The position numbers and the translations under genes were made by a program. DNA of 64,000 nt from Mustelus asterias (Eukaryota): positions 15,066,001 to 15,130,000 of the forward strand of contig NC_135826.1 of the NCBI RefSeq assembly GCF_964213995.1. Direction: 5' to 3'. The notes under the pieces were generated by a model. That model was not told where the DNA came from and did no database searches. It saw only the letters and a list, made by a program, of their open reading frames with translations. Position 1 is the stretch's first letter; each line of letters opens with the position of its first letter. Of this stretch, positions 38,311 to 64,000 are shown piece after piece.

Positions 38311-39344
38311 TCCTTTTGTCCACCTAGTGGGAACATCAACTTCTCTGTTTTCCAACACCCTGGCCGGGATTTGCCAGCCACGCTCACCCCAAAACCAGAA
38401 AATTCCACCTGAGGTCAAAGGACCGTAACTTGGTCCGTGCTCCCCCCCCCTCCCCCCCTCCCACCCACCCCGCCCCTGCTACAATTCCCATGGTGGAGGA
38501 GACAGGAAAATTCCCCCCTCTTGTTAACTTGAGACAACAAATAAAATAGTTGAATGCGTTGTTTATAGAATGATCCTTTTTATATTAATAAATAATGAAG
38601 CTTAACAATAACTCAGCAGAACAGTAATAACAGTAATAGCTATGAAAACAGGAGCACTAGTAAAACAGGTTTCTCTTGCAGAACACTCGCTTGCTGCCCT
38701 CCAAAACCCGCACATGCTCAGAACCCTCAACAGATGCCAGTAAAACAATTCCATAGGAGGAAAGTCTTATAAGAACACTCTGTACTCAAAATGACGTTCT
38801 GTAACACACTCAAACTGATGTCTCTCCACAGGGTGCAGCATAAGTTAACAAGTTGTATGTTTAGTTAACTCCAGGATTATATGTCCATTATGGGACGTGA
38901 ATAATATTTCTATCATTTGGGAAAATGAATATTGCTGTCTGACCATTCCTGAAGTCCAATCTCTGGACAACTCTGGACTGTGGAAAGGAACGGAGCTGTC
39001 ACTGGAGAGTCAAATTCTCCCACTCGTCCAGATAGCTTTCCAGGTCAAAGCCGTGATAGGTAGATGGTATTTCTTTCCTGGACTCACAACGTGCTTTAAG
39101 CTATCCCAGTACATGAGGAATACAATCGAAAAAGAAGTTGTTTCAGCAGAGAGTAGCACTGGCAGCTCACCAATATTTCTGTGTTGTTCAACCACCTGGA
39201 TTCAGCTGGTTAAACTCCAGCAGTACATCTGAAATCCTGAAGGTTTGTCTATTGCCACTGGCACCTAACTTAGGTGGATATGGGTAAGTGAGGTGTTCCT
39301 GCAGGGAGAATGTGAGGACCCCATAATCAGGTGACTCTTAAGTT

Positions 39345-39655
39345 GGGGCGGTACGGTGGCACAGTGGTTAGCACTGCTGCCTCACAGCGCCAGGGACCTG
39401 GGTTCAATTCCTGGCTTGGGTCACTGTCAGTGTGGAGTTTGCACATTCTCTTTGTGTCTGCGTGGGCTTTCTCTGGGTGCTCAGGTTTCCTCCCACAGTC
39501 CAAAGATGCGCAGGTTAGGCCATGCTAAATTGTCCTTTAATGTCAGGGGAACTAGCTAGGGTAAATGCATTGGGTTATGGGGATAGAGTCTGAGTGGGAT
39601 TGTAGTCGGTGTGGACTCAATGGGCTGAATGGCCTCCTTCTGCACGATGGGATTC
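39345..39655 (+). mobile_element. HE1-like SINE
   Basis: TSD TAAGTT; empty site at paralog ~15781. Confidence 0.82.
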
Positions 39656-45578: not shown

Positions 45579-45660
45579 GCTGCGATGGCCGAGTGGTTAA
45601 GGCGTTGGACTTGAAATCCGATGGGGTTTCCCTGCGCAGGTTCGAACCCTGCTCGCAGCG
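45579..45660 (+). tRNA. tRNA-Ser (anticodon UGA)
   Basis: 82 nt; acceptor stem GCTGCGA/TCGCAGC plus discriminator G; A box TGGCCGAGTGG; anticodon TGA 45612-45614; long variable arm; B box GGTTCGAACC; TTTT at 45681-45684. Confidence 0.92.
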
Positions 45661-47037: not shown

Positions 47038-49155
47038 GAGAATCTGCAGGAAATATTTCCATGTGTGTTCAGTCATTTGAATGGAATTTAATGCCCCTCT
47101 GGAGATGTGTTCAGAAGCAGTGGGATGGGGGAGCATGATTTCGGGGTGGTGGGTGTGGGTGAATACTGTTGCCTTCCCCCACCATTTGATTTTAAATCGA
47201 GAGCTGGATGTCCTGCCAGCAGCTGTCCCACCCACAGGCCAACTGAGGCCACGTTACTACGTAAAGGTCTTGTCCTGTTGCTGCTGGTAATCAACCTATG
47301 AGGGGCAGGGATTCACCTCCAGTTAACCCTACTGATGTTATCGTCTGGGGGAGGTCCCTTGTACTCTGTGTCTGATCGAGGCGCCCAGCATCGTCAAGGG
47401 ATTGGCCCACAAGAAGGTTACCCTCCTTTCACTGCCAACCTTCATCCCGCTCACACTGACAGCTTTTTAGGGATCCATGGCCGACCTTTGCTGCAGGCCT
47501 CACTGCAATACCAGTGGTGACCACCGCTGGTGCTGCTGCTGCTGCTGTGTTTGCTGCCAATCTGGCTGGTTGTTCTCAAGGGTGGGATGGCTGTCCCAAA
47601 GTTAAAAAACGCAGTAATTAAATTACCCCAGCAGTGCTGGTAGACCTGATGGTATATGTTGCACTGCTCGTTATGGGGAATCCAGAGATTGGTTTAGTGG
47701 GCACCAGATGATGTGGGGATGGTCGAGCCCCCTACTGCCCACACTAAATTCCGCTCCTTGTGTGCCACGTCCCATCCCTGAACCACCAAATGATTAGCAT
47801 CTGAGTACAGTGGCATGTACCTTGTACAAGCTGCATTTGCAACAACAGGGCAAGGCTCCTTCAACATCTAAACTCATAACTTCTGCTATCTCGATGAAAA
47901 AGAACGGTTGATGCTTAGGAACACCACGACCTGCAAATTCCCCTCCAACTCCCACCCGGTCCTGACTTGGAACTATTCGCTGTTCCTTTACTGTCATTGG
48001 GCCAAAATAATTAAATGTCCTCCTGAACAGCACTGTGCCTATACCATATAAACTGCAGTGGTTCAAGAAAGTGGCTCGCCACCACCTTCTCGGGGGCAAT
48101 TAGGGATGGAAAGGAATGCTGGCATTTCATGAATGCCATAAATGAATTTTAAAAAAGACAATGCATTGCTCCAATTCTGATCCAGTTTTGCCATGCAGGA
48201 ATGTGATGGGAAGTCAGATAGGGTCCAGGATTTGATCAAAATCTTTCAAAAGTCCTTGGATATGGGATTTGGATCAGATGTCTGGAGAGTTACCACCAAT
48301 GTAATTGTTTCTCATCGAATGAACTAGGAATGTTATAGATAGACCAACAGGCTGCATCAGTGGGGAACATCCAGATCCCACAATACAAGCTAAATTAGTG
48401 TTCAACTGGAGACAGAGAGCCAGAATACTTTCTTAAGTCAGGTCTTGTGGGAGAACATTGGAGTTATTGTTTCAGAATAAGGGGTCACCAATTTAGGACA
48501 GAACTGAGCAAAATGTTTTTCTCTCAAAAAGTTCTAAGGTTTTGGAAATCTCTTCCCCAAATTGAGGCTGAGGCAGAGTCTTTGAATATCTTTAAGGTAG
48601 AGATAGATGCATTCTTTACAAGCAAGGGCTGAAAGGTTATCGGGAGTAGGCAGGAGCATGGGGTTGAGGTGAAAATCAAAGGCGTCGGGTACAACTGAGT
48701 GTACCACCATGATGAATGCAGGGAACCGTGCACTGAGGTGCATGATGTGCATGTGATGATCACGCACCAACTGTCTGTTTTTTTAATTTGTTCATGGGAT
48801 GTGAGTGTCATTGGCTGGACCAACATTATTGCCCATCCCTGAGGGCATTTAAGAGTCGACCACATTGCTGTGGGTCTGAAATCACATGTAGGCCAGACTA
48901 GGTAAGGATGGCAGATTTCCTTCCCGAAAGGGACATTAGTGAACCAGATGGATTTTTATGACAATCAACTTTGGTTTCATGCACATCGTCAGACTTTAAT
49001 TCCAGATTTTTATTGAATTCAAATTATGCCATCTGCTTTGGAGGGATTTGAACCCACGTCCCTGGGGCATTACCGAATTGGAGAAAAAGTTGAGGGCAGC
49101 CGTGACCCTCATGGCCACTGGGAGTGGGTGTCCTCCTCCTCCCCTTGGTGCCGGG

Positions 49156-50399
49156 GTCATGAAGGGAAAGTCATGTTTGACTAATTTACTGGAATTTTTG
49201 AGGAAAGAACGAGTGTGGTTGACAGAGGGGAACTGGTGGATGTGGTGGATTTCCAGAAGGTATTCAATAAGGTGCCTCACAAAAGGTTGCTGCATAAGAT
49301 AAAGATATACAGAGTTGGGGGTAAAGTGTTAGCGTGAATTTAGGATTGGCTATCTAACAGAAAGCGGAGAGTCGGAATAAATGGGTGCTTTTCCGGTTGG
49401 CAATCAGTGACTAGTGGCGTGCTGCAGGGATCGGTGCTGGGGCCTCAACTAGATGACCTGGAGGAGGGGACCGAGTGTAGGGTAACAAAGTTTGCGGATG
49501 ACACAAAGATGAGTGGGAAAGCAAATTGCGTGGAGGACACAGAGTCTGCAGAGAGATTTGGATAGGCTAAGTGAGTGGGCAAGGATCTGGCAGATGGAGT
49601 ATAACGTTGGTAAGTGTGAGGTTATCCACTTTGGAAGGAATAATAGTAAAATGGACTATTATTTAAACGGTGAAAAATTACAACATGCTACTGTGCAGAG
49701 GGACCTGGGGGTCCTTGTGCATGAATCACAAAAACTCAGTTTGCAGGTGCAGCAGCTGATCAAGAAGGCAAATGGAATGTTGGCCTTTATTGCGAGGGGG
49801 ATGGAGTATAAAAGCAGGGAGGTCATGCTGCAACTGTACAGGGTACTGGTGAGGCTGCACCTAGAGTACTGTGTACAATTTTGGTCCCCTTATTGAAGAA
49901 AGGATATATTAGCTTTGGAGGGGGTACAGAGAAGGTTCACCAGGTTGATTCCAGAGATGAGGGGTTTAGCTTATGAGGAGAGATCGAGTAGACTCGGCCT
50001 TTACTCATTGGAGTTTAGAAGGTTGAGGGGAGATCTTATAGAGACATATAAGATAATGAAGGGGCTAGACAGGGTAGAAGCAGCGAGGTTATTTCCACTT
50101 ACAATGGAAACAAGAACTAGGGGGCATAGCCTCAAAATACGGGGGAGTCAATTTACAACAGAGGTGAGGAGGAACTTCTTCTCCCAGAGGGTACTGAATC
50201 TTTGGAATTCTCTGCCAATGGAGCAGTACAGGCTATCTCGTTAAATATGTTTAAGTCACAGATAGATAGATTTTTAACCATTAAGGGAATTAAGGGTTAT
50301 GGGGAGCGGGCAGGTAAGTGAAACTGAACCCACTATCAGATCAGCCATGATCTTATTGATGGCCTACTCCCGCTCCTATTTCTTATGTTCTTATGTTCT
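49156..50399 (+). mobile_element. CR1 LINE 3' part
   Basis: RT fragments 49513-50244; (TTCTTATG)n tail. Confidence 0.85.
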
Positions 50400-53300
50400 A
50401 CCAGAACCTGGCACAAGTACCGCACTGTCTCCTGGTTCAGTCGCAGACTTTAGCGGCACATGTTGTCCAGCACTTGTGGAATGAGCAGCACCTCATGTAT
50501 ACATGTAACCTTCAGTAGGGCTGCATTCAGACCCCATCCTCGGCCTAATGGCTGGATGGTTCCTGAGCCTCCACAGCAGCCCCCTGATCTTTGGCTGGTT
50601 GTTCAGGTCAGGCCTGGGCTGGCCCTGGTGCTCTCGCCATTGCATTTCTGCCTCGGCAACAGTGATGTGGAACATTGCCAACTGGTCTGGCTGAATTCTG
50701 AAATTCATAGCCATTCTGTGAGGAGACAGAGAAGGAGAGAGAAGGTGAGTCAGCAAGGCCACCCATCCTGGACCCTCAGTTCCTCCCTACTCCTCTTGTC
50801 ATCCTGCCAGCCCAACCCTCACTGTTCCCATCTCCCAGCACAGCCTCGAGGGGCTGCTGCCCTTATCATTTAGCTCGCACAGTCACAGGATAATGTCCAT
50901 CGCCTCTTATTCCTGACCAGGGGAGGCCCTCCCATCACCTCAGTAATGGAGCACCTCGTTTTCTGGTGAAAATAGATGCCATGCCTCCTGGATCCACCAG
51001 TGTTGTCATGTGGTCCATGGTGCGAGGCACCAGGTGAGTCCTCACTCAGACCCTGCCTACAACGGCCTCTTCCCCTGAGCCAAACCTGGACGTTGTGAAT
51101 GGTGACATTGCTGCATTATCAATGATGATGGACAGTTATAGAGTCATAGAGGTTTACAGCATGGAAACAGGCCCTTTGGCCCAACTTGTCCATGCCGCCA
51201 ATTTTTTTTAAACCCCAAAACTAATCCCAATTGCCCGCATTTGGCCCATATCCCTCTATACCCATCATACCCATGTAACATGTGACAAATAACAGTGGAC
51301 CCAGCACTGATCCCTGAGGCACACCGCTGGTCACAGGCCTCCAGTTTGAAAAACAATCCTCTCCAACTACCCTCTGGCTTCTGTCAAGAAGCCAATTTTA
51401 TATCCATTTAGATACCTCACCCTGGATCCTGTGAGATTTAACCTTATGCAACAATCTACCACGCGGTACCTTGTCAAAGGCCTTGCTAAAGTCCATGTAG
51501 ACAACATCAACTGCACTGCCCTCATCTACCTTCTTGGTTACTTCTTCGAAAAGGTGATTGGAAGCCCAATGGTGGCATGAATGTGAGAGGGCAAGGCACT
51601 ATCAGAAGTGAACAAGGAAGCCCGTAAGCTGCTCAGGCTTGAACATAAAGCCACCGTCTTATTGTCGAGTGACCATATTCTATGGAACAGGCCAGCCAAT
51701 GTAGAAATTGTGAATTCAAGCTAAAGTCAGTCCACAACCTCCCCACTCCCACCCCTTCTAGGATAAGGACTTGACAGTCCAGCCCTGTCCCCTTCGGTGA
51801 CTTGCAGCTCGGCCCTTGCTCGGCAAAGATTCATGCCTCACAATCCCTCCAGCCCAATTCAGCAGCCTCTAACCGCCAGGGCCAGTGGCAGCAACATCGA
51901 GATGCTGGACAGTGTGGCCCTAATGCTGAGTCTCCCAGGGAGACCAGTAGGGTCATCCTCCTTCAGGGACCCTTGTGCCTTTGTGTGTGAGCTGGGGCAG
52001 ATGCTGATGTAACGAATGACAGGCTTGAGTTTGGTTCCTCAGCCTGGGCAGTAATGACATTCTGAGAGATCTGCTTTTGTTGCAAATGTGGCAGATACAA
52101 CATCTGGTACAAAAATCCGTCCATCCAAACTTCTCACTTCTGTTAGAGGCTTCACAGACAAGGATGAAAAGCCTGAACCTGAAAGAAAATGGCATGAGAA
52201 AACTTTCCTCCAGGAAGACTCAGATAGTTGGGAACAACGTTCTATGAAAAAATAGGCCCAGAATAAACAGCTGTGCTTAAAAGACGAATCACATCAGGGT
52301 CAGTGAGGCATTAAATGATTGTATCAACAATGGAGGCTTTGATCTCCCCTGTAACTGTCAGTCAAAAACTTTTAGCAGCTCATGCTCCATTTGTGCCTCA
52401 TGTAAAGCAAGCCAGATAATACCCTCCTCATCGTGGTTTGGGTTGTAAGTGAAAGTTTTGTCACACACCATGGAGCAGGAGGTGATAAATGTGAACCAAA
52501 CCTGAAGGGAACTGACGCCTTCCCGTCAATCAAAGGAGTTCAAAGAGCTCTGGTAACAGCCATGGCTCCTGAAATTGAGGAAGTCTTATCCAACAATGTG
52601 AATGGAGTGCAGCTTTAACGTGGAAGGCTGATGGATATTCATGGGCGTGCATTTCCATCTAAACAGGGGACTTTAAAACTCTAACATGCAGCAAACAGGA
52701 AACATTGATTTCAATGCTAAGGTGCCTGAAATTCAAACCTCAGCAGAGACTTTCTACCACCCTACGGCAACATGGAGGAGTCTAGCCAGGGGACCCCCAT
52801 CCCAGGGTAAATCCCCCCCTGGGTGAAACCCTTCCTCCAGGAGTGGCCGCCCTTATATCTCCCTGCAATAGGGCCCCTCTAAACCCTCGAAGTTTGTTAG
52901 CGATGGTCCATTCCTCACCCTCGGAGTCCAGGCCGCCTGATCCATGCTTTTAAAGAGCAACACCAATTGGTGCGCACGGGAAACCTGGCAGGAGAGGCTG
53001 GAGCGTCGCGGGAGGAGGTTGAATCAGGCTTCCAGATTGCTAATTAAATGCAAATATGCAAATATGCATAATATGTAGGTTCTCTCTGAGCGGGAATCTG
53101 TTTGGGACTGGCGGGACGAGCTGAGAGACTGATAAAAATAGACATTGAATCATAGAAACTAGAAGCAGGAGGAGGCCATTCAGCCCTTCGAGCCTGCTCC
53201 ACCATTCATTTTGATCATGGCAGATCATCAAATTAAATATCCTGATCCCCCCTTCCCCCCATATCCCTTGATCCCTTTAGTCCCAAGAGTGATATCTAAT

Positions 53301-53698
53301 TTCTACTTCAAGTCAGACAATGTTTTGGCCTCAACTACTTTCTGTGGTAGTGAATTCCACACATTCACCACCCTCTGGGTGAAGAAATTTCTCCTCACCT
53401 CAGTTCTAAAAGGTTTACCCCTTATCCTCAAACGATGAGCCCCAGTTCTGCACTCCCCCATCATTGGCAACATTCTTTCTGAATCTACCCTGTCTTATCG
53501 TGTTAGAATTTTATAAGTTTCTATGAGATCCCCTCTCGCTCTTCTAAACTCCAGTGAATATAATCCTAACCGACTTAGTCTCTCCTCATATGACTGACCT
53601 GCCATCCCAGGAATCAGCCTGGTAAACCTTTGCTGCACTCCCTCTATAGCAAAGACTACCTTCTTCAGATAAGGACACCAAAACTGCACACAACACTC

Positions 53699-54008
53699 TG
53701 TGGTGAACCATAGTTGTTTACCACTATGAGTACTGAACCATAGATGGTCAGCACTATGGGTACTTGTAGATATGTTGGCTGTGTTGTCACTGTTGGGGTT
53801 AGGGTTGGGGTGTTCTACCTGTTGATATTGTTCTGTGGTACACTCCAGTTGGCTCCGCCTACTTGGAGGAATATAAAGGTCACTGCACTGCGTGGTGACC
53901 CTTTAGTCTGGGATTGTATTGTACATAGTGTGCTCCATTCTTGTTAGTAATAAAAGCCTTTATTTCCCGGGTACGATCCAGCCTCCCGAGTGATTTAATC
54001 GCGCATCA
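53699..54008 (+). repeat. 5' LTR (310 bp)
   Basis: Direct repeat with 58089-58395; TATAAA 53872-53877; AATAAA 53949-53954. Confidence 0.95.
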
Positions 54009-54043
54009 ATTTTATTACAAACAAATTTTGGTAAAAAAAAACC

Positions 54044-57000
54044 ATGGAGCAAATGTTGAAACCCGATCGGCTTACCTTAGATCCACGTGCAGCGGGAGCG
54101 TCGAACACTTTCGACCATTGGTTAAAGTGTTTTCAAGACTACATCGACGCCTCAACAGCCGTTCAAAACGACGCCGATAGACTGCGGGTCCTCCACGCAA
54201 GGGTAAGCGACACTGTATACTCATCAATCTGCAATGCCCAAGACTACAAAGGGGCCATCGAACTACTTAAGAAACTGTACGACAAACCGCCAAACGAGAT
54301 CCATGCTCGACACCTTCTAGCCACTCGACGGCGGCAGCCCGGCGAAACGACAGGACAGTACCTGCGCGAACCTCAGCAGCTCGCCAGAGCCTGCAACTGC
54401 AAGCCAGTGTCGGCGGCCCAGTATACTAACGACTTGATCCGAGATGCGTTCGTGGCGGGAATCGGCTCATCGTATATTCGCCTGCGGCTGCTAGAGCAAG
54501 GTAACCTAGACCTAGCTAAGACGGTGGAATTGGCTGACACGATGGAAAAGGCCTCCAGTAGTCTAGACACTTACCCCACCAACCATGTGGGAACATCGTG
54601 GCAAGTACAGCCACCGACTCAACTCTACCCAGCGGCTCCGAAAAACTGCACGATTGTGCTTTCAACCTCGGACCTGATGATGGCGGCAGCTCCAGGAGGC
54701 CCGCGGTGCTATTTCTGTGGATTGGCGAAACACCCTCGGCAGCAATGTCCAGCCAGAACGGTATTTTGCCCCGCGTGTGGGAAGAAAGGGCATTATGCCA
54801 AAGTATGCAGGGCTAAACCACTCTCCAAGCATAGCAGCGCGGCGTGTGATTCTCCAGAGCCTGTCTCCTTGTCTCCAGCTTCTTCGAGGTCTTCCACCAC
54901 GTGCGATTCCAGAGCGCCGCCATTCCTGACGATGAAGACGCAAGACATGTGCGACCTGCAGGGGCCGCCACTTTTAGCGCCACCGACCATGTGCGATCCA
55001 TGGGCGTGGCCATTTTGGTCGGCACCGACCGCAGACGACCAGCAGGGGTCATCATCATCAACCATCTCGGCTGCCTGCAGTTGCACTCAAGACCCAACGG
55101 TGGCGTCAATCATCCTGGACCAGGCCAAGCCTCACAGACTCGACAAGTCCATGATGGACATAGAGGTAAATGGACGCCTAATTCATTGTTTGTTTGACAG
55201 CGGGAGCACGGAGAGTTTCATTCACCCTGACACCGTGAAACGGTGCGGTCTCCGAGTATGGACTGTCAGACAGACAATTTCGATGGCGTCGAGGTCCTGG
55301 TCTGTTACCGTGCTTGGGAGCTGCTTGGTCAACCTAACGGTGCGGGGCACAGTTTATGAGAACTTCAGGCTCCTTGTGTTATCGCAGCTTTGCGCTCCGA
55401 TACTCCTGGGACTAGACTTTATGGTCCACCTGAGGAGTGTAACCCTGCAGTACGATGGGCCACTCCCGCCACTTTCAGTGGGGGAACAGCGGCCTCCAAA
55501 TTGCCCAGCGCGCTCCACGTGTAGCCTCTTGACACTCAGAATCACCCCACCATCTCTATTCGGGAATCTCGTGCCAGGCTGCAAGCCCATCGCAACTAAG
55601 AGCAGGTGTTACAGCGCTGAGGATCGGATCTTTATTCGATCTGAAGTTCAGCGGCTCCTTAGGGAAGGGATCATTCAACCTAGCACTAGTCCATGGAGAG
55701 CGCAAGTCGTGGTGGTTAAAACTGGAGACAAACCCCGGATGGTCACAGACTATAGTCAGACCATTAATAGATACACGCAGCTGAATGCGTATCCTCTCCC
55801 GCGCATATCTGACATGGTCAACCAGATTGCGCAGTACCGGGTGTTCTCCACCATTGACTTGAAGTCAGCTTACCACCAGCTCCCCATTCGCCCAGAGGAC
55901 CGAAAATATACGGCCTTTGAGGCGGATGGTCGTCTTTACCACTTTTTATGGGTTCCTTTTGGCGTCACGAATGGTGTCTTGGTCTTCCAGTGTGCAATGG
56001 ACCGAATGGTGGACCAAAACGGGCTTCGGGCTACCTTCCCGTACCTGGCCAACGTCACTATCTGCGGCCATGACCAGCAGGACCACGATGCCAATCTCCT
56101 TAGATTTTTACGCACTGCGTCTCGCCTGAATCTGACCTACAACAGGGAGAGTTGTGTATTTAGCAAACGCCGCCTAGCAATTCTCAGATACGTGGTGGAA
56201 AACGGGGTCCTTGGCCCTGATCCAGACCGTATGCGTCCCCTCCTTGAACCCCCCCTACCCACTAGTATCAAAGCACTGAGAAGATGCTTAGGCTTCTTCT
56301 CATACTATGCACAGTGGGTTCCCAATTATGTGGATAAAGCCCGTCCGCTCATAAAGTCTACCTCTTTTCCCCTAGCAGCAGAGGCTCGCTTAGCCTTTGA
56401 AGGGATAAAAGCTGACATCGCGAAAGCCACGATGCACGCTGTCGATGAGTCCATCCCCTTTCAGGTGGAGAGTGATGCATCTGATTTCGCCCTGGCCGCC
56501 ACACTTAACCAGGCGGGCAGGCCCGTCGCCTTTTTCTCTCGCACCCTCCAAGGCCCTGAAATTCCGCACTCCGCGGTGGAAAAAGAGGCTCAGGCAATTG
56601 TGGAGGCCGTCCGGCATTGGCGCCATTACTTGGCGGGAAAACAATTCACCCTGCTCACGGACCAGCGGTCCATGGCGTTCATGTTCAACAACACGTTACG
56701 GGGTAAGATCAAGAATGATAAAATCTTGAGGTGGAGAATCGAACTCTCCACCTACAACTATGATATCATGTACCGTCCGGGGAAGTTCAATGAGCCCTCG
56801 GACGCCCTGTCGCGTGGAACATGTGCAAGTGTGCAGGAGGATCGATTACAGGCCCTCCACAATGATCTCTGCCATCCGGGGATCACTCGGCTCTTCCATT
56901 TTGTAATGGCCCGGAATATACCCTACTCAGTGGATGATGTTAGGTCAATAACCCAAAGATGCCAGGTATGTGCCGAATGCAAACCGCACTTCTACCGACC

Positions 57001-58087
57001 TGACAGGGCACACCTCATTAAAGCCACTCGCCCTTTTGAAATACTGAGTGTGGACTTCAAGGGCCCCCTTCCTTCGACAGATCGGAACGTGTACTTCCTC
57101 AACGTGATTGACGAGTATTCATGATTCCCTTTTGCCATTCCCTGTTCAGACATGACCGCTGCCACGGTTATCAAAGCATTACGGGATCTTTTCACCCTGT
57201 TCGGTTACCCCAGCTATATCCACAGTGATAGGGGCTCGTCATTTATGAGTGACGACTTGAGGCAATACCTGCTCTCAAAAGGGATTGCCTCAAGTAGAAC
57301 TATGAGTTACAACCCCAGGGGTAACGGGCAGGTTGAAAGAGAAAATGCTACAGTCTGGAAGGCTGTCTTACTGGCGTTGAGGTCTAAGGGTCTTCCAGTC
57401 TCCCGTTGGCAAGAGGTACTTTCTGATGTGCTCCATTCCATCCGGTCCCTCCTGTGTATGGCAACCAACGCTACTCCACATGAGAGGATGTTTTCCTTCC
57501 CTAGGAAGTCTTCCTCTGGGACCTCATTGCCATCTTGGTTGATGTACTCAGGACCTGCCCTCCTGCGGCGGCATGTTAGGACCCGCAAGTCCGACCCTTT
57601 GGTTGAACAGGTCCATCTCCTCCACGCCAACCCTCAATATGCCTATGTGGCATATCCTGACGGGCGAGAGGACATGGTCTCTATTAGAGATCTGGCGCCT
57701 GCAGGGGTCTTGGAAACCCCAGTCGCTCCCACACCCCTAGTTAGGGACCCTTTGACCTTTATCTCCCCTCCTGACAGGGCGCGGGCAGTATCGGGACCAC
57801 CACTTAATCCTCTTACTCCCGTGTACAGCTTGCCTGAGTCCAGGAGATTGTCGTCACCTCGAGGCTTGCTCGAGTCCAGCAGATGGTCGCCACCTTGTGG
57901 TCCACCTGTCCGTGACACTGGCCACCGCCTTGGAGAGAGGGTCATCACGGTCACCAGAACCGGCGTTACCGCCAGTGTTGAGGAGGTCGCAGAGACGGTG
58001 CGGTCCTCCAATACGACTGAACTTGTGAATATTTGGACAGTTTGTTCTGTTTTTGCCCCGCCGGCCTTTGTCTTAAAGGAGGGGTGA
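54044..58087 (+). pseudogene. Single gag-pol ORF with one in-frame stop (57122-57124) and a mutated RT catalytic motif
   Basis: Two CCHC knuckles, FDSGS protease, RT YLAN, RNase H SDAS..EKE, integrase HHCC and SVDFKGP..HSDRG..GQVERE; the two ORFs share one frame. Confidence 0.88.
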
Positions 58088-58088
58088 A

Positions 58089-58395
58089 TGTGGTGAACCA
58101 CTGTTGGTTACCACTATGAGTACTGAACCATAGATGGTCAGCACTATGGGTACTTGTAGATATGTTACTGTTGTCACTGTTGGGGTTAGGGTTGGGGTGT
58201 TCTACCTGTTGATATTGTTCTGTGGTACACTCCAGTTGGCTCCGCCTACTTGGAGGAGTATAAAGGTCACTGCACTGCCTGGTGACCCTTTAGTCTGGGA
58301 TTGTATTGTATATAGTATGCTCCATTCTTGTTAGTAATAAAAGCCTTTATTTCCCGGGTACGATCCAGCCTGCCGAGTGATTTAATCACGCATCA
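58089..58395 (+). repeat. 3' LTR (307 bp)
   Basis: About 10 substitutions and a small indel relative to the 5' LTR. Confidence 0.95.
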
Positions 58396-60207
58396 CACTC
58401 CAGGTGTGGCCTCACCTATACAATTGCAGCAAAACATCCTTATCCCTATACTCAAATCCTCTCGCTATGAAGGTCAATATACTACATGCATTCTTTACTG
58501 CCTGTTGTACCTGCACAATTACTTTCAGCGACTGATGCATGAGAACACCAAGGCCTCGCTGATTATCCACCTCTCCCAATTTACACCCATTCAAGTAATA
58601 ATCTTCCTATTATTGCTACCAAAGTGGATAACTTCACATTTATCCTACTGCATCTGCCATGCATATGCCCACACACTCAGCCTGTCCAAATGATGCTGAA
58701 GCATCTCTGTATGGTCCTCACCCTCCCACCCAACGTTGTATCATCTGCAAGTCTGGAGATAATACATTTAGTTCCCGCTTCCAAATCATTAATATATAAT
58801 GTGAACAGTTGGGTTCCTGGCACAGATCCCTGCAGAACTCCACTCGTCACTGACTGCCAATCAGAAAAAGACCCATTTATACCAACTCTTTGCTTCCTAA
58901 CTGCTAACCAGCTTTCTATCCATCTTAAGACATTACCTGCAATCCCATATGCTTTAACTTTACCTCGTAGTCTGTTATGTAAGACCTTGTCGAAAGCCTT
59001 CTGAAAGTCTAAATAAACCACATCCACTGATTCTCCTCGGTTATCTTTACTAGTTACATCCTCAAAGAATTCCAATTAAGTTGTCAAGCACGATTTCCCT
59101 TCTGTAAATCCATGCTGACTTTGTCCGATTATACCACTGCCTTCCAAATGCTGAGTTATGAAATCCTTGATAATAGACTCCAGCAACTTCCCCAGTACCA
59201 ACGTTAGGCTCACTGGTCTATAGTTCCTTGTTTTCCCTCTACCTCCCTTTTTGAAATAGCTCGATGCCCAGTGGGAATCCTGATTTAGCCCTGGTGCTGG
59301 ATTCAACAGACCATCGGGATTCTCGGCTGTGACTAGTGGACCTGGAGAATCCCCCTCTCAGCCTCCACTCCTGACTCGGATACCAAGTAACAGGACTGTA
59401 ATGGACTGTAACGTTGGAACATTATACAACAATTATGGGTAGAATTTTCCCAAAATCTTTCAAAGTGCCATATCAGCGAAACAACAGGGGTGTTTTGCGC
59501 AGGTTCCTTGGTCCGCTTTGCGTCGCAATCTTCCGACACTCAGTGCAGTGAAAGAACCTCCATGCGATTCATGCCATCATGGATGCACCAGTCATCTGAC
59601 TCACCCAAAGTGGTACAGCTTTGCGCTGTCAAGCAGGGGCAGCTCCATTTAAACACTAACAGTACACACAGTCACGCCAGGAAGTTTATTTATTTAAAGT
59701 TTATTTATTAGTCAGAAGTAGGCTTACATTAACACTGCAATGAAGTTGCAGTGTTAATGTAAACTTACTCTGACGCCTGTTCGGGTACACTGAGGGAGAA
59801 TTTAGCATGGCCAATCCACCTCGTAGAGCTGCTCCACAATTTATGCAGGGGGAGTTGGGCCGGCTACTTGATGCCATGGAAGAGAGGAGGGCCATCTTCT
59901 TCCCCAGAGACGGTTGGCGGCCCAATGGGCTACCGCCATGAATCAGCCATAATTCCCACAGTCATGATCACTGTCAGTCACCTGATTCCTGGAAGTGAGC
60001 TGAGGACAGGATTGTGTTGGTTTGTGTCTACATGTCTGCCTACACTCACTGCCTCGAGTCCCACATGAAGACATTGACATTCAATGGCATTAACATCACT
60101 GAATCCTCCACTTTCAGCACCCTTAAGGTTGCCATTGACCAGATATTGAACCAGATCAGCTGCATAAATGCTGTGGATACAAGAGCAGGTCAAAGGTTGG
60201 GAATCGG

Positions 60208-61587
60208 CATAACTCAGCATTTAGAAGGCAGTGGTATAATCAGATAAAGTCAGCATGGATTTACAAAACGGAAATCATAGAAACATAGAAAACTACAGCA
60301 CAAAACAGGCCCTTCGGCCCCACAAGTTGTGCCGAACATATGCCTACCTTTTAGGCCTACCTATAACCCTCCATCCTATTAAGTCCCATGTACTCATCCA
60401 GGAGTCTCTTAAAAGACCTTATTGAGTTTGCCTCCACCACCACTGACGGCAGCCGATTCCACTCGCCCACCACCCTCTGTGTGAAAAAATTCCCCCTAAC
60501 ATTTCCCCTGTACCTACCCCCCAGCACCTTAAACCTGTGTCCTCTCGTAGCAGCCATTTCCACCCTGGGAAAAAGCCTCTGAGAGTCCACCTGATCTATG
60601 CCTCTCAACATTTTATATACCTCTATTAGATCTCCTCTCATCCTACGTCTCTCCAAGGAGCAAAGACCGAGCTCCCTCAGCCTATCCTCATAAGGCATGC
60701 CACTCAATCCAGGCAACATCCTTGTAAATCGCCTCTGCACCCTTTCAATCTTTTCCACATTCTTCCTGAAATGAGGCGACCAGAACTGAGCACAGTACTC
60801 CAAGTGGGGTCTGACGAGGGTCTTATATAGCTGCATCATTATCCCTGGACTCCTAAACTCAATCCCTCGATTGATAAAGGCCAGCACACCATACGCCTTC
60901 TTAACCACCTCCTCCACCTGTGGGGCCGATTTTAGAGTCCTATGGACCCGGACCCCAAGGTCCTTCTGATCCTCCACAGTACTAAGAGTCTTTCCCTTTA
61001 TATTGTACTCCTTCATCCCATTTGACCTGCCATTTATCTGGGTTGAAGTTAAATCATGCTTGACAAATTGATTGGAATTCTTTGAGGATGTAACTCGTAA
61101 AGTTGACCGAGGAGAATCAGTGGATGCGGATTATTTAGACTTTCAGAAGGCTTTCGGCAAGGTCTTACATAACAGACTACTAGGTAAAGTTAAAGCACAC
61201 GGGATTGCAGGTAATGTCTTGAGATGGATAGAAAGCTGATTAGCAGATAGGAAGCAAAGAGTTGGTATAAGTGGGTCTTTTTCTGATTGGCAGTCGGTGA
61301 CTTGTGGGCTTCAGCAGGGATCTGTGCCAGGAACCCAACTGTTCACATTATATATTAATGATTTGGAAGCGGGAGCTAAATGTATTATCTCCAGATTTAC
61401 AGATGATACAAAGTTGGTTGGGAGGGTGAGGAGGATACAGTGATGCTTCAGCGTGATTTAGACAGGCTGAGTGTGTGGGCATATGCAAGGCAGATGCAGT
61501 AGGATACATGTGAGGTTATCCACTTTGGTAGCAATAATAGGAAGATTATTACTTGAATGGGTGTAAATTGAGAGAGGTGGATAATCA
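60208..61587 (+). repeat. Inverted copy of decayed CR1 segment 58560-59160, inside another LINE (~60070-62105)
   Basis: Shares idiosyncratic deletions with the nearby copy. Confidence 0.65.
60279..61050 (-). mobile_element. CR1 3' fragment
   Basis: ORF 60357-61016; TSD AAATCAT (60272-60278 / 61051-61057). Confidence 0.85.
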
Positions 61588-62419
61588 CCTCATGACTCCC
61601 CAAAACCTGTTCACTATCTGCAGGGCACAAATCAGGAGTGTGATGGAATACTCTCCTCTTGCCTGGATGGGTGCAGCTCCAACAACACTCAAGAAGCTTG
61701 ACACCATCCAGGACAAAGCAGCCCACTTAATTGGCACCCCATCCACCACCTTCAACATCCACCCCTTCCACCATTGATGCACAGTGGCAGCAGTGTGTAC
61801 CATCTACAAGATGCACTGCAGCAACTGACCATGGACCCTTCGACAGCACCTTCCAAACCCACAAACTCTTCCACCCAAAAGGACCAGGGCAGCAGATGCA
61901 TGGGAATACACCCAATTGCAAAGTTCATCTCCAAGCCTTGGACATATATTACCATTCTTTCACTGTCAAAATCCTGGGACCTGTGTCATATGAACTGCAG
62001 TGGTTCAAGAAGATGGTTCGCCATCACGTTCTCAAGGGGAATTAGGGATGGGCAACAAATGCTGGCCTAACCAGCGATACCCACATTCCATGAACAAATA
62101 AAAATAAGAATGGTCACTATTGATTGCTGTTGGCACCTTCAGCACCTGTGTGGCAGCAGCGACCCAAAAATGAGTTAAACTTCATCCAGAGAAGGAATAA
62201 AATCACACATTGGATCAGTTAACCCTTAGGTGGAGAAATAAGATGGATGTCATCGAATTGAAGGTCATTGTACATCTCAAAGGATTTTCCTCCTATGACT
62301 TTGATTGAGAGGCCGCTATCACCCAGAGTTAAACTGGTCATGTGATGTTCGGTGAATAAAACTGTTGGGTCCATGAACACAAGCAACAAACATGGCAGAA
62401 ATTCAGGAGCAATTTTTGT

Positions 62420-62765
62420 TAAAATTGACCTTGTTCAGATTGCATCGGAGACAATCTCCCTAAAAACAGTGAGTGTCTGACAGACTTAAAGAAACACGTC
62501 AAATTAAACAGAAACCAAGATATTTGTGTATTGTTGGTATAAGATACAGATTTGGAGGGTTTGATTCTGTTCTGGACAGCCCCACTCCTTAAAATAACAT
62601 TGCACAGTTCCTGCTGGGACCCCAGGTGGTTGTTAGTTTCACCCACTGGAGGAAGCTGGTTTGGGCGGCACAAAATCATATTTAAAATCTAAAGCTGATT
62701 GGATGGGGCAGCCATCTAAATGCGGTTTAACTTCACTCTATCCCCTTCAATATTTAAATGAGGTG
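62420..62765. promoter_or_regulatory. Conserved upstream module, copy 3 (diverged)
   Basis: Invariant 38-bp core 62585-62622, E-box CAGGTG, AAAGCTGATTGG 62691-62702. Confidence 0.5.
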
Positions 62766-62785
62766 AAATTATTACATCCACGGGT

Positions 62786-64000
62786 TAGATAGAACATAGA
62801 TAGAACATAGAACATTACAGCACAGAACAGGCCCTTCGGCCCACGATGTTGTGCCGACCTTCATCTGAAACCAAGATCAAGCTATCCCACTCCCTACCAT
62901 CCTGGTGTGCTCCATGTGCCTATCCAATAACCGCTTAAATGTTCCTAAAGTGTCTGACTCCACTATCACTGCAGGCAGTCCATTCCACACCCCAACCACT
63001 CTCTGCGTGAAGAACCTACCTCTGATATCCTTCCTATATCTCCCACCATGAACCCTATAGTTATGCCCCCTTGTAATAGCTCCATCCACCCGAGGAAATA
63101 GTCTTTGAACGTTCACTCGATCTATCCCCTTCATCATTTTATAAACCTCTATTAAGTCTCCCCTCAATCTCCTCCGCTCCAGAGAGAACAGCCCCAGCTC
63201 CCTCAACCTTTCCTCATAAGACCGACACTCCAAAACAGGCAGCATCCTGGTAAATCTCCTCTGCACTCTTTCCAGCGCTTCCACATCCTTCTTATAGTGA
63301 GGTGACCAGAACTGCACGCAATATTCCAAATGCGGTCTCACCAAGGTCCTGTACAGTTGCAGCATAACCCCACGGCTCTTAAACTCCAACCCCCTGTTAA
63401 TAAAAGCTAACACACTATATGCCTTCTTCACAGCTCTATCCACTTGAGTGGCAACCTTTAGAGATCTGTGGATATGGACCCCAAGATCTCTCTGTTCCTC
63501 CACAGTCTTCAGAACCCTACCTTTGACCCTGTAATCCACATTTAAATTTGTCCTACCAAAATGAATCACCTCACATTTATCAGGGTTAAACTCCATTTGC
63601 CATTTTTCAGCCCAGCTTTGCATCCTATCTATGTCTCTTTGCAGCCTACAACAGCCCTCCACCTCATCCACTACTCCACCAATCTTGGTGTCATCAGCAA
63701 ATTTACTGATCCACCCTTCAGCCCCCTCCTCTAAGTCATTAATAAAAATCACAAAGAGCAGAGGACCAAGCACCGATCCCTGCGGCACTCCGCTAGCAAC
63801 CTGCCTCCAGTCCGAAAATTTTCCATCCACCACCACCCTCTGTCTTCGATCAGATAGCCAGTTACCTATCCAATCGGCCAACTTTCCCTCTATCCCACAC
63901 CTCCTTACTTTCATCATAAGCCGACCATGGGGGACCTTATCAAACGCCTTACTAAAATCCATGTATATGACATCAACCGCCCTACCTTCATCAACACACC
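62786..64000 (-). mobile_element. Young CR1 LINE running off the window
   Basis: Open RT ORF 62877-63962; (ATAGAAC)n tail. Confidence 0.9.

Follow-up and report, generated by a model that had tools for sequence, protein, structure and literature searches.

A Ty3/Gypsy retrotransposon lineage in Mustelus asterias with a primer position complementary to its own LTR: a candidate for self-priming

The window analysed here (64,000 nucleotides of Mustelus asterias, positions 15,066,001 to 15,130,000 of contig NC_135826.1) contains a Ty3/Gypsy LTR retrotransposon, the features of which are listed in Table 1. The order of its domains (gag, protease, RT, RNase H and integrase) is that of Ty3/Gypsy elements, its RT has the Ty3 RT as its best match among solved structures (E 2.7e-42), and the TG...CA LTRs, target-site duplication and polypurine tract expected of this group are all present. 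The copy is decayed, its frame being interrupted by a premature stop at 57122-57124 and its RT catalytic motif being degenerate, and its 5' and 3' LTRs differ by 10 mismatches in 307 aligned bases. The leader between the primer position and the ATG (54025-54043) is just 19 nt long and contains T and A runs, its length being variable among family copies; in several relatives the ATG lies within a few bases of the duplex described below, and the helix may also affect translation. The insertion site (53495-53698 and 58396-58500) is a minus-strand fragment of a LINE-like RT, and 48000-64000 is filled with similar LINE-like RT fragments, which we take to be of the CR1/L2 type. ARAGORN reports two tRNA-like sequences in the window (39336-39422 and 45579-45660), one without a valid anticodon and one Ser-TGA, which are possibly SINE-derived.

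Table 1. Positions of the Ty3/Gypsy copy and its parts, in window numbering
Feature	Positions	Strand	Remarks
Left target-site duplication, 5 bp	53694..53698	+	repeated at 58396-58400
5' LTR, 310 bp, TG...CA	53699..54008	+	
TATA box (TATAAA)	53872..53877	+	predicts an RNA start near 53900-53905
LTR arm, predicted 3' part of self-primer	53941..53955	+	AATAAA at 53949-53954 inside; cut predicted directly behind 53955
53-nt loop (rest of R and U5)	53956..54008	+	predicted strong-stop DNA template
Single unpaired A between LTR-terminal CA and duplex	54009..54009	+	
Primer-binding position	54010..54024	+	complement of the LTR arm, not of a tRNA 3' end
Gag, protease, RT, RNase H and start of integrase, one frame	54044..57124	+	two CCHC knuckles
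Remaining integrase, same frame past the stop	57125..58087	+	without chromodomain
Polypurine tract	58075..58088	+	
3' LTR, 307 bp	58089..58395	+	second arm copy at 58328-58342

A previous sequence-only reading of the window had noticed that the primer position is the reverse complement of a stretch inside the 5' LTR, and its coordinates and letters were borne out when the window was re-inspected. The two 15-mers, 53941-53955 and 54010-54024, are complementary at 14 of 15 positions, the mismatch being 53946/54019. This mismatch is particular to the window copy, as the pair is A-T in 177 of 189 family copies, most of which pair at 15 of 15 positions. The TGG of a tRNA-type primer site is missing as had been claimed: none is found within 19 nt of the LTR end, and the first one, at 54029-54031, varies among family copies. 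The hallmark of tRNA-primed elements, a TGG lying no more than a few bases past the 5' LTR and pairing with a tRNA 3' end, was not found. At up to one mismatch, the window contains the 15-mer at three places against an expectation of 0.01, none of 100 shuffles reaching three, and all of these places belong to the one element: the primer site, the 5' arm and the 3' arm at 58328-58342. RNAfold predicts the helix in all four folded stretches, with z-scores of -3.7 and -3.1 for the two tight stretches and of -1.07 and -1.55 for the two 150-nt stretches.

The family to which this copy belongs is abundant, one junction pattern having 707 exact matches in the 3.68-Gb assembly and its control none. 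From this assembly, 205 loci were fetched and 189 unique copies kept, the first 30 of which had been picked by likeness to the LTR and leader and the others regardless of the arm. Among all the loci taken from the assembly, including those of the other families below, two with identical flanks on different contigs (L223/L224) and two with identical scores and junctions (L550/L551) probably represent duplicated or haplotype sequence in the assembly. Two pairs of the duplex are variable and remain complementary in 174 and 178 of the 189 copies: 53947/54018 is G-C in 100, C-G in 51, T-A in 23 and discordant in 15 copies, and 53945/54020 is T-A in 149, C-G in 29 and discordant in 11, where some copies were picked by primer-site variants, so that these allele counts are not genome frequencies. 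Among 613 columns, the near-fixed differences between subfamilies number four for G versus T, six for G versus c45 and seven for C versus T, and each of these sets includes one complementary pair. Under random placement, the probability of this is 1.6e-4 to 1.3e-3 in each case, where the three alleles of a single pair depend on each other. Thirty further copies were chosen solely by a rarer primer-site variant; 25 of them have a perfectly matching arm, and they revealed two additional compensated subfamilies. The nine copies chosen by a variant at 54017 include no perfect arm match, with one or two mismatches each. Crossover mapping over the 189 copies, which should tell a cut behind the arm apart from copying up to the cap, detected no hotspot at two switch costs and with or without CpG columns, and favours neither of the two. 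Covariation of this kind is evidence of selected or templated pairing, not of priming itself.

The two LTRs of single copies were also compared. Among 100 further copies, the 3' LTR lies inside the fetched stretch in 73; these LTR pairs differ by a mean of 6.7 mismatches, and 57 of the 73 copies have a perfect 5-bp duplication. The 5' and 3' arms are identical in 54 of the 73 copies, and the primer site is the exact complement of both in 51 of these 54. A separate set of 40 copies, chosen mostly for mismatch, gave 28 usable LTR pairs, and in several mismatch-selected copies the 5' arm is altered while the 3' arm still matches the primer site. The notion that foreign patches in the 5' LTR are confined to the predicted primer was rejected, as the copies concerned had been selected for mismatch and the 73 unselected pairs disagree: in these, 78 subfamily-type differences fall in U3, 25 before the arm, two in the arm and eight after it. 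Since such patches are spread over the whole LTR, they are more likely to result from post-insertion gene conversion than to be the trace of a primer. Differences between the two LTRs of a copy often come in short clusters, at sites that tell subfamilies apart (for example L220/L446, L279/L393, L282/L396 and L198/L370). Judged by these sequences, the patches suggest that short gene conversion between copies after insertion is frequent, which would inflate LTR-based estimates of age. It could accordingly be argued that the inverted repeat has no function and that its halves are matched by palindrome correction at the DNA level or by chromosomal gene conversion, and the common occurrence of short subfamily-type patches between LTRs suggests that conversion is frequent. 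We consider this very improbable: in the 54 copies mentioned above, the arm allele of the 5' LTR is also present in the 3' LTR, where no partner lies next to it, pairing was broken rather than perfected by conversion in most of the discordant copies inspected, and priming would be left unexplained.

The pairing extends to other families of the same genome. Sixty loci (one place being fetched twice) were picked by two distant gag proteins alone and scored blind; 58 of them form 11 or more of 14 Watson-Crick pairs without a shift of register, compared with five of 1200 shuffles. The letters of the arm vary by family, and the succession of CA, A and duplex is kept in 58 of 60. Among these differences, a change of AATAAA to ATTAAA is mirrored in the partner strand, and an alignment of 10 host copies has two-sided changes at four of 20 predicted pairs. 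Many copies of the related host families have open frames of about 1350 codons, and parts of the lineage have spread recently. Loci with a SURL-like gag in the same genome, tried as a control, were uninformative, being old copies with undefined LTR ends.

Named proteins related to the element come from corals, octocorals, a jellyfish and Trichinella, and a search of viral contigs found no relatives. A metagenome scan contributed 79 loci, of which 15 have a usable LTR pair and 64 have none under the criteria applied; the 15 LTR-defined rows represent about eight families. The duplex of 13 of these 15 is reached by at most one of 300 shuffles, its letters differing from locus to locus, the spacer is exactly A in 12 of 15, and none of the 15 has a TGG primer site. 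At L120 the duplex is 7 bp long and non-significant (82 of 300 shuffles). L127 conforms by eye on the other strand; its LTRs (L127:3786-8200) are opposite in direction to the pol match and are the reverse complement of the LTR of L092, which suggests an internal inversion. For a comparison of 23 families, 10 of the host and 13 distant, five of the 64 loci lacking a usable LTR pair were added (L093, L095, L135, L142 and L160), in four of which the LTR end was taken from the duplex itself and is therefore circular as evidence for its position. The spacer is one A in all 23, the anchors having been chosen on that junction, and the loop is 20-65 nt long. The arm ends in an A run; the first base of the loop is G or A in every one of the 23 families, mostly with CC behind it. 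In nine of 10 host families, a TATA motif precedes the arm by 64-81 nt; none of the 13 distant ones has one within 150 nt. Relative to the LTR end, the duplex keeps one register in elements that are only 39-61% identical to the window element in RT-RNase H, which largely refutes palindrome correction or gene conversion as its source. Among the relatives compared, there was none that keeps the post-LTR sequence and lacks the pairing. The covariation that the sequence-only reading had proposed as a check was seen at three levels, pairing being compensated within the family, among the other host families and at distant loci, and the pairing feature is real and lineage-wide.

Whether a host RNA could nevertheless serve as primer was addressed through the complement of the primer site. 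Its 16 bases have 264 matches in the genome, against 16 for a control; the first 30 of these matches contain no tRNA gene, all 30 being junctions of the element, so the host tRNA that would have contradicted self-priming did not appear among them. A search of Rfam over 53600-54200 returned no match. The primer site shifts between subfamilies in step with the LTR, which argues against a host primer, as the latter would fix the site. Going by the sequences compared, no single tRNA can fit the window family, the other host families and the distant loci, and the primer is very probably derived from the element.

The helix could instead have a regulatory role, masking the 5' poly(A) signal or aiding packaging, with priming carried out by a protein, a piece of host RNA or some other means. 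Selection on a hairpin would also be expected to produce covariation, and all 10 host families and seven of 13 distant ones have the hexamer within the helix. The remaining six distant families have an arm without a canonical hexamer, two of them having one outside the helix and four having none. The suggestion of the sequence-only reading that the hairpin may suppress premature polyadenylation in the 5' LTR holds as a possibility where the arm contains the hexamer, but burial of the signal cannot be the conserved purpose of the duplex, as the hexamer is paired in only seven of 13 distant families. The helix also sits exactly where a primer must bind, its site differs between families and subfamilies when a host primer would reset it in each cycle, paired double changes occur on very short branches, and neither tRNA genes at the first 30 matches nor an Rfam family offers a host primer. 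A purely regulatory role is therefore improbable, and self-priming is preferred.

The sequence-only reading had called the element Mag-like. This holds for gag only, and weakly (E of about 8e-5 to P0029 and P0030), whereas the RT-RNase H stands on its own long branch, being about 27% identical to that of the SURL-like P0030, within the 24-32% found for outgroups. In a FastTree tree of RT-RNase H with 132 rows (81 ingroup proteins, the window, 19 loci, 30 of 52 outgroup candidates and one extra), 102 ingroup and 30 outgroup rows are split by a long branch with support of 1.0 and 0.93; the tree is midpoint-rooted and without named references, so that the name of the clade and an independent origin are beyond its reach. 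The most basal members of the lineage, such as P0161, P0190 and P0227, show 37-45% identity. Mag elements are generally tRNA-primed. The Mag lineage (Mag/Jule, 'New Mag' and SURL) shares with the window element a single gag-pol frame and two CCHC knuckles, the latter being found in the gag of most relatives. By eye, the N-terminus of gag resembles New Mag and SURL representatives in part 7 of supplementary file 3 of PMC3670739, and the motifs GVTNG, YLDNV, YLDNI and RHLLATR of the window element's own lineage have no match in the portion of that supplement searched. A motif search of the supplements of a mollusc paper, files that may hold no sequences, likewise gave no match, and an Atlas search with gag led to unnamed arthropod gag clusters.

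The closest known parallels are Tf1 and Tf2 of Schizosaccharomyces pombe, Tj1, Tosmo1-3 and the Tf1/sushi chromoviruses, which also have the Ty3/Gypsy domain order and no tRNA site, and whose primer site just past the LTR-terminal CA complements their own LTR, as described in the available portions of PMC10085805, PMC7175516 and PMC4600332. No chromodomain was detected in the two ORF pieces of the window or in 18 of 18 relatives (E 0.01), which places the element outside Tf1/sushi though it would work like them. Unlike that of Tf1, the arm is probably internal rather than at the RNA 5' end, and in most cases the poly(A) hexamer forms its end. For a tail-to-loop pairing like that of the third duplex in the Tf1 'pretzel', none of the 23 families exceeds its shuffles (p 0.10-0.93), and a short inner helix is predicted but has no two-sided changes. 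The Tcn1 clade of Gypsy and the TAR lineage of Copia in plants were predicted from sequence to self-prime on comparable grounds, namely 10 bp or more of the LTR that pair with a stretch 0-5 bp past the 5' LTR; they differ in having plant and fungal hosts and in being a chromovirus (Tcn1) or a Copia lineage (TAR), and the parts of PMC6317226 at hand do not connect this with the poly(A) signal. Skipper of dictyostelids and GalEa of fungi likewise lack a canonical TGG site, but Skipper has no LTR complement and the hairpin of GalEa lies within the internal region, according to the portions available of PMC5006619 and PMC6934838.

In LTR elements, the edge of the LTR is set by the 3' end of the primer, and the primer site is a copy of the primer made during plus-strand synthesis. 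The arm is probably the primer, since the duplex ends one base from the CA, in the position that a primer 3' end would take. Self-priming from the element's own LTR, as put forward in the sequence-only reading, is strongly supported by the covariation, and we infer that the lineage likely primes reverse transcription in cis with the arm of its own 5' LTR rather than with a tRNA. We propose that in host families the RNA starts about 35-50 nt upstream of the arm. The TATA motif 64-81 nt before the arm in nine of 10 host families would then make the primer about 50 nt long, with just its 3' part paired. The arm would fold onto the primer site, and the RNA would be cut right after the terminal As of the arm, probably by the RNase H of the element, by analogy with Tf1, whose RNase H cleaves the RNA duplex (PMC7175516 and PMC10085805, in the parts available). 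The new RNA 3' end would prime strong-stop DNA across the loop, and this DNA would jump to the 3' R by way of the short segment that runs from the cut to the poly(A) site. During plus-strand synthesis, the primer site would afterwards be rewritten from the primer, such that a mutation of the arm could reach its partner without a second mutation. Copying of the primer would explain the paired double changes on very short branches, for which selection on pairing is also possible. Burial of the 5' poly(A) signal may be a side benefit where the arm contains the hexamer.

With a 5' arm, the overlap for the first strand transfer would be short. This difficulty disappears if the same arm acts as primer but comes from the 3' LTR copy, cut or trimmed past the hexamer, or in trans from a short LTR transcript, as strong-stop DNA would then run to the cap and provide the full R for transfer. 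The 3' LTR holds an identical arm, thousands of candidate LTR-bearing places (3428 at first look) could supply such RNAs, and the covariation fits equally well. Polyadenylation, however, normally cuts 10-30 nt past the hexamer and not beside it, the loop is kept short at 20-65 nt in all 23 families, and the 5' arm is predicted to be the first to pair with the primer site, which lies 53 nt away. We regard a 3' or trans origin of the primer as unlikely, though less so than the purely regulatory hairpin, and retain the 5' arm in cis.

In the literature searched, with subscription papers and Repbase reports outside its scope, self-priming is described just for Tf1/sushi, Tcn1 and TAR, with conjectures for Skipper and GalEa, as far as the available portions of the sources go (including PMC6238403 and PMC5341516). 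The accessible part of PMC3601003 presents self-priming as characteristic of Tf1/sushi chromoviruses and as perhaps ancestral to tRNA priming. The present lineage with its own-LTR primer geometry was not found in that literature, self-priming having been shown before mainly in yeast Tf1-type elements. Some Repbase entries for fish Gypsy elements reportedly mention self-priming.

Taken as a whole, our reading, which we favour somewhat over its alternatives, is that of a deep, chromodomain-less Ty3/Gypsy lineage extending from cnidarians and nematodes to vertebrates, in which self-priming would be independent of that in Tf1/sushi, the internal arm would be cut after the hexamer, and the primer site would be rewritten in each cycle, so that the primer drifts fast and yet stays paired. 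With 707 junction matches in the genome, the family is abundant enough for the primer to be directly searchable in host RNA and cDNA. Annotation pipelines that require a tRNA site would misannotate such elements, and the lineage would, as far as its primer site suggests, escape silencing by tRNA fragments aimed at primer sites. Such a second large lineage in animals, its primer geometry being different, is relevant to the question of whether self-priming had a single origin or multiple origins.
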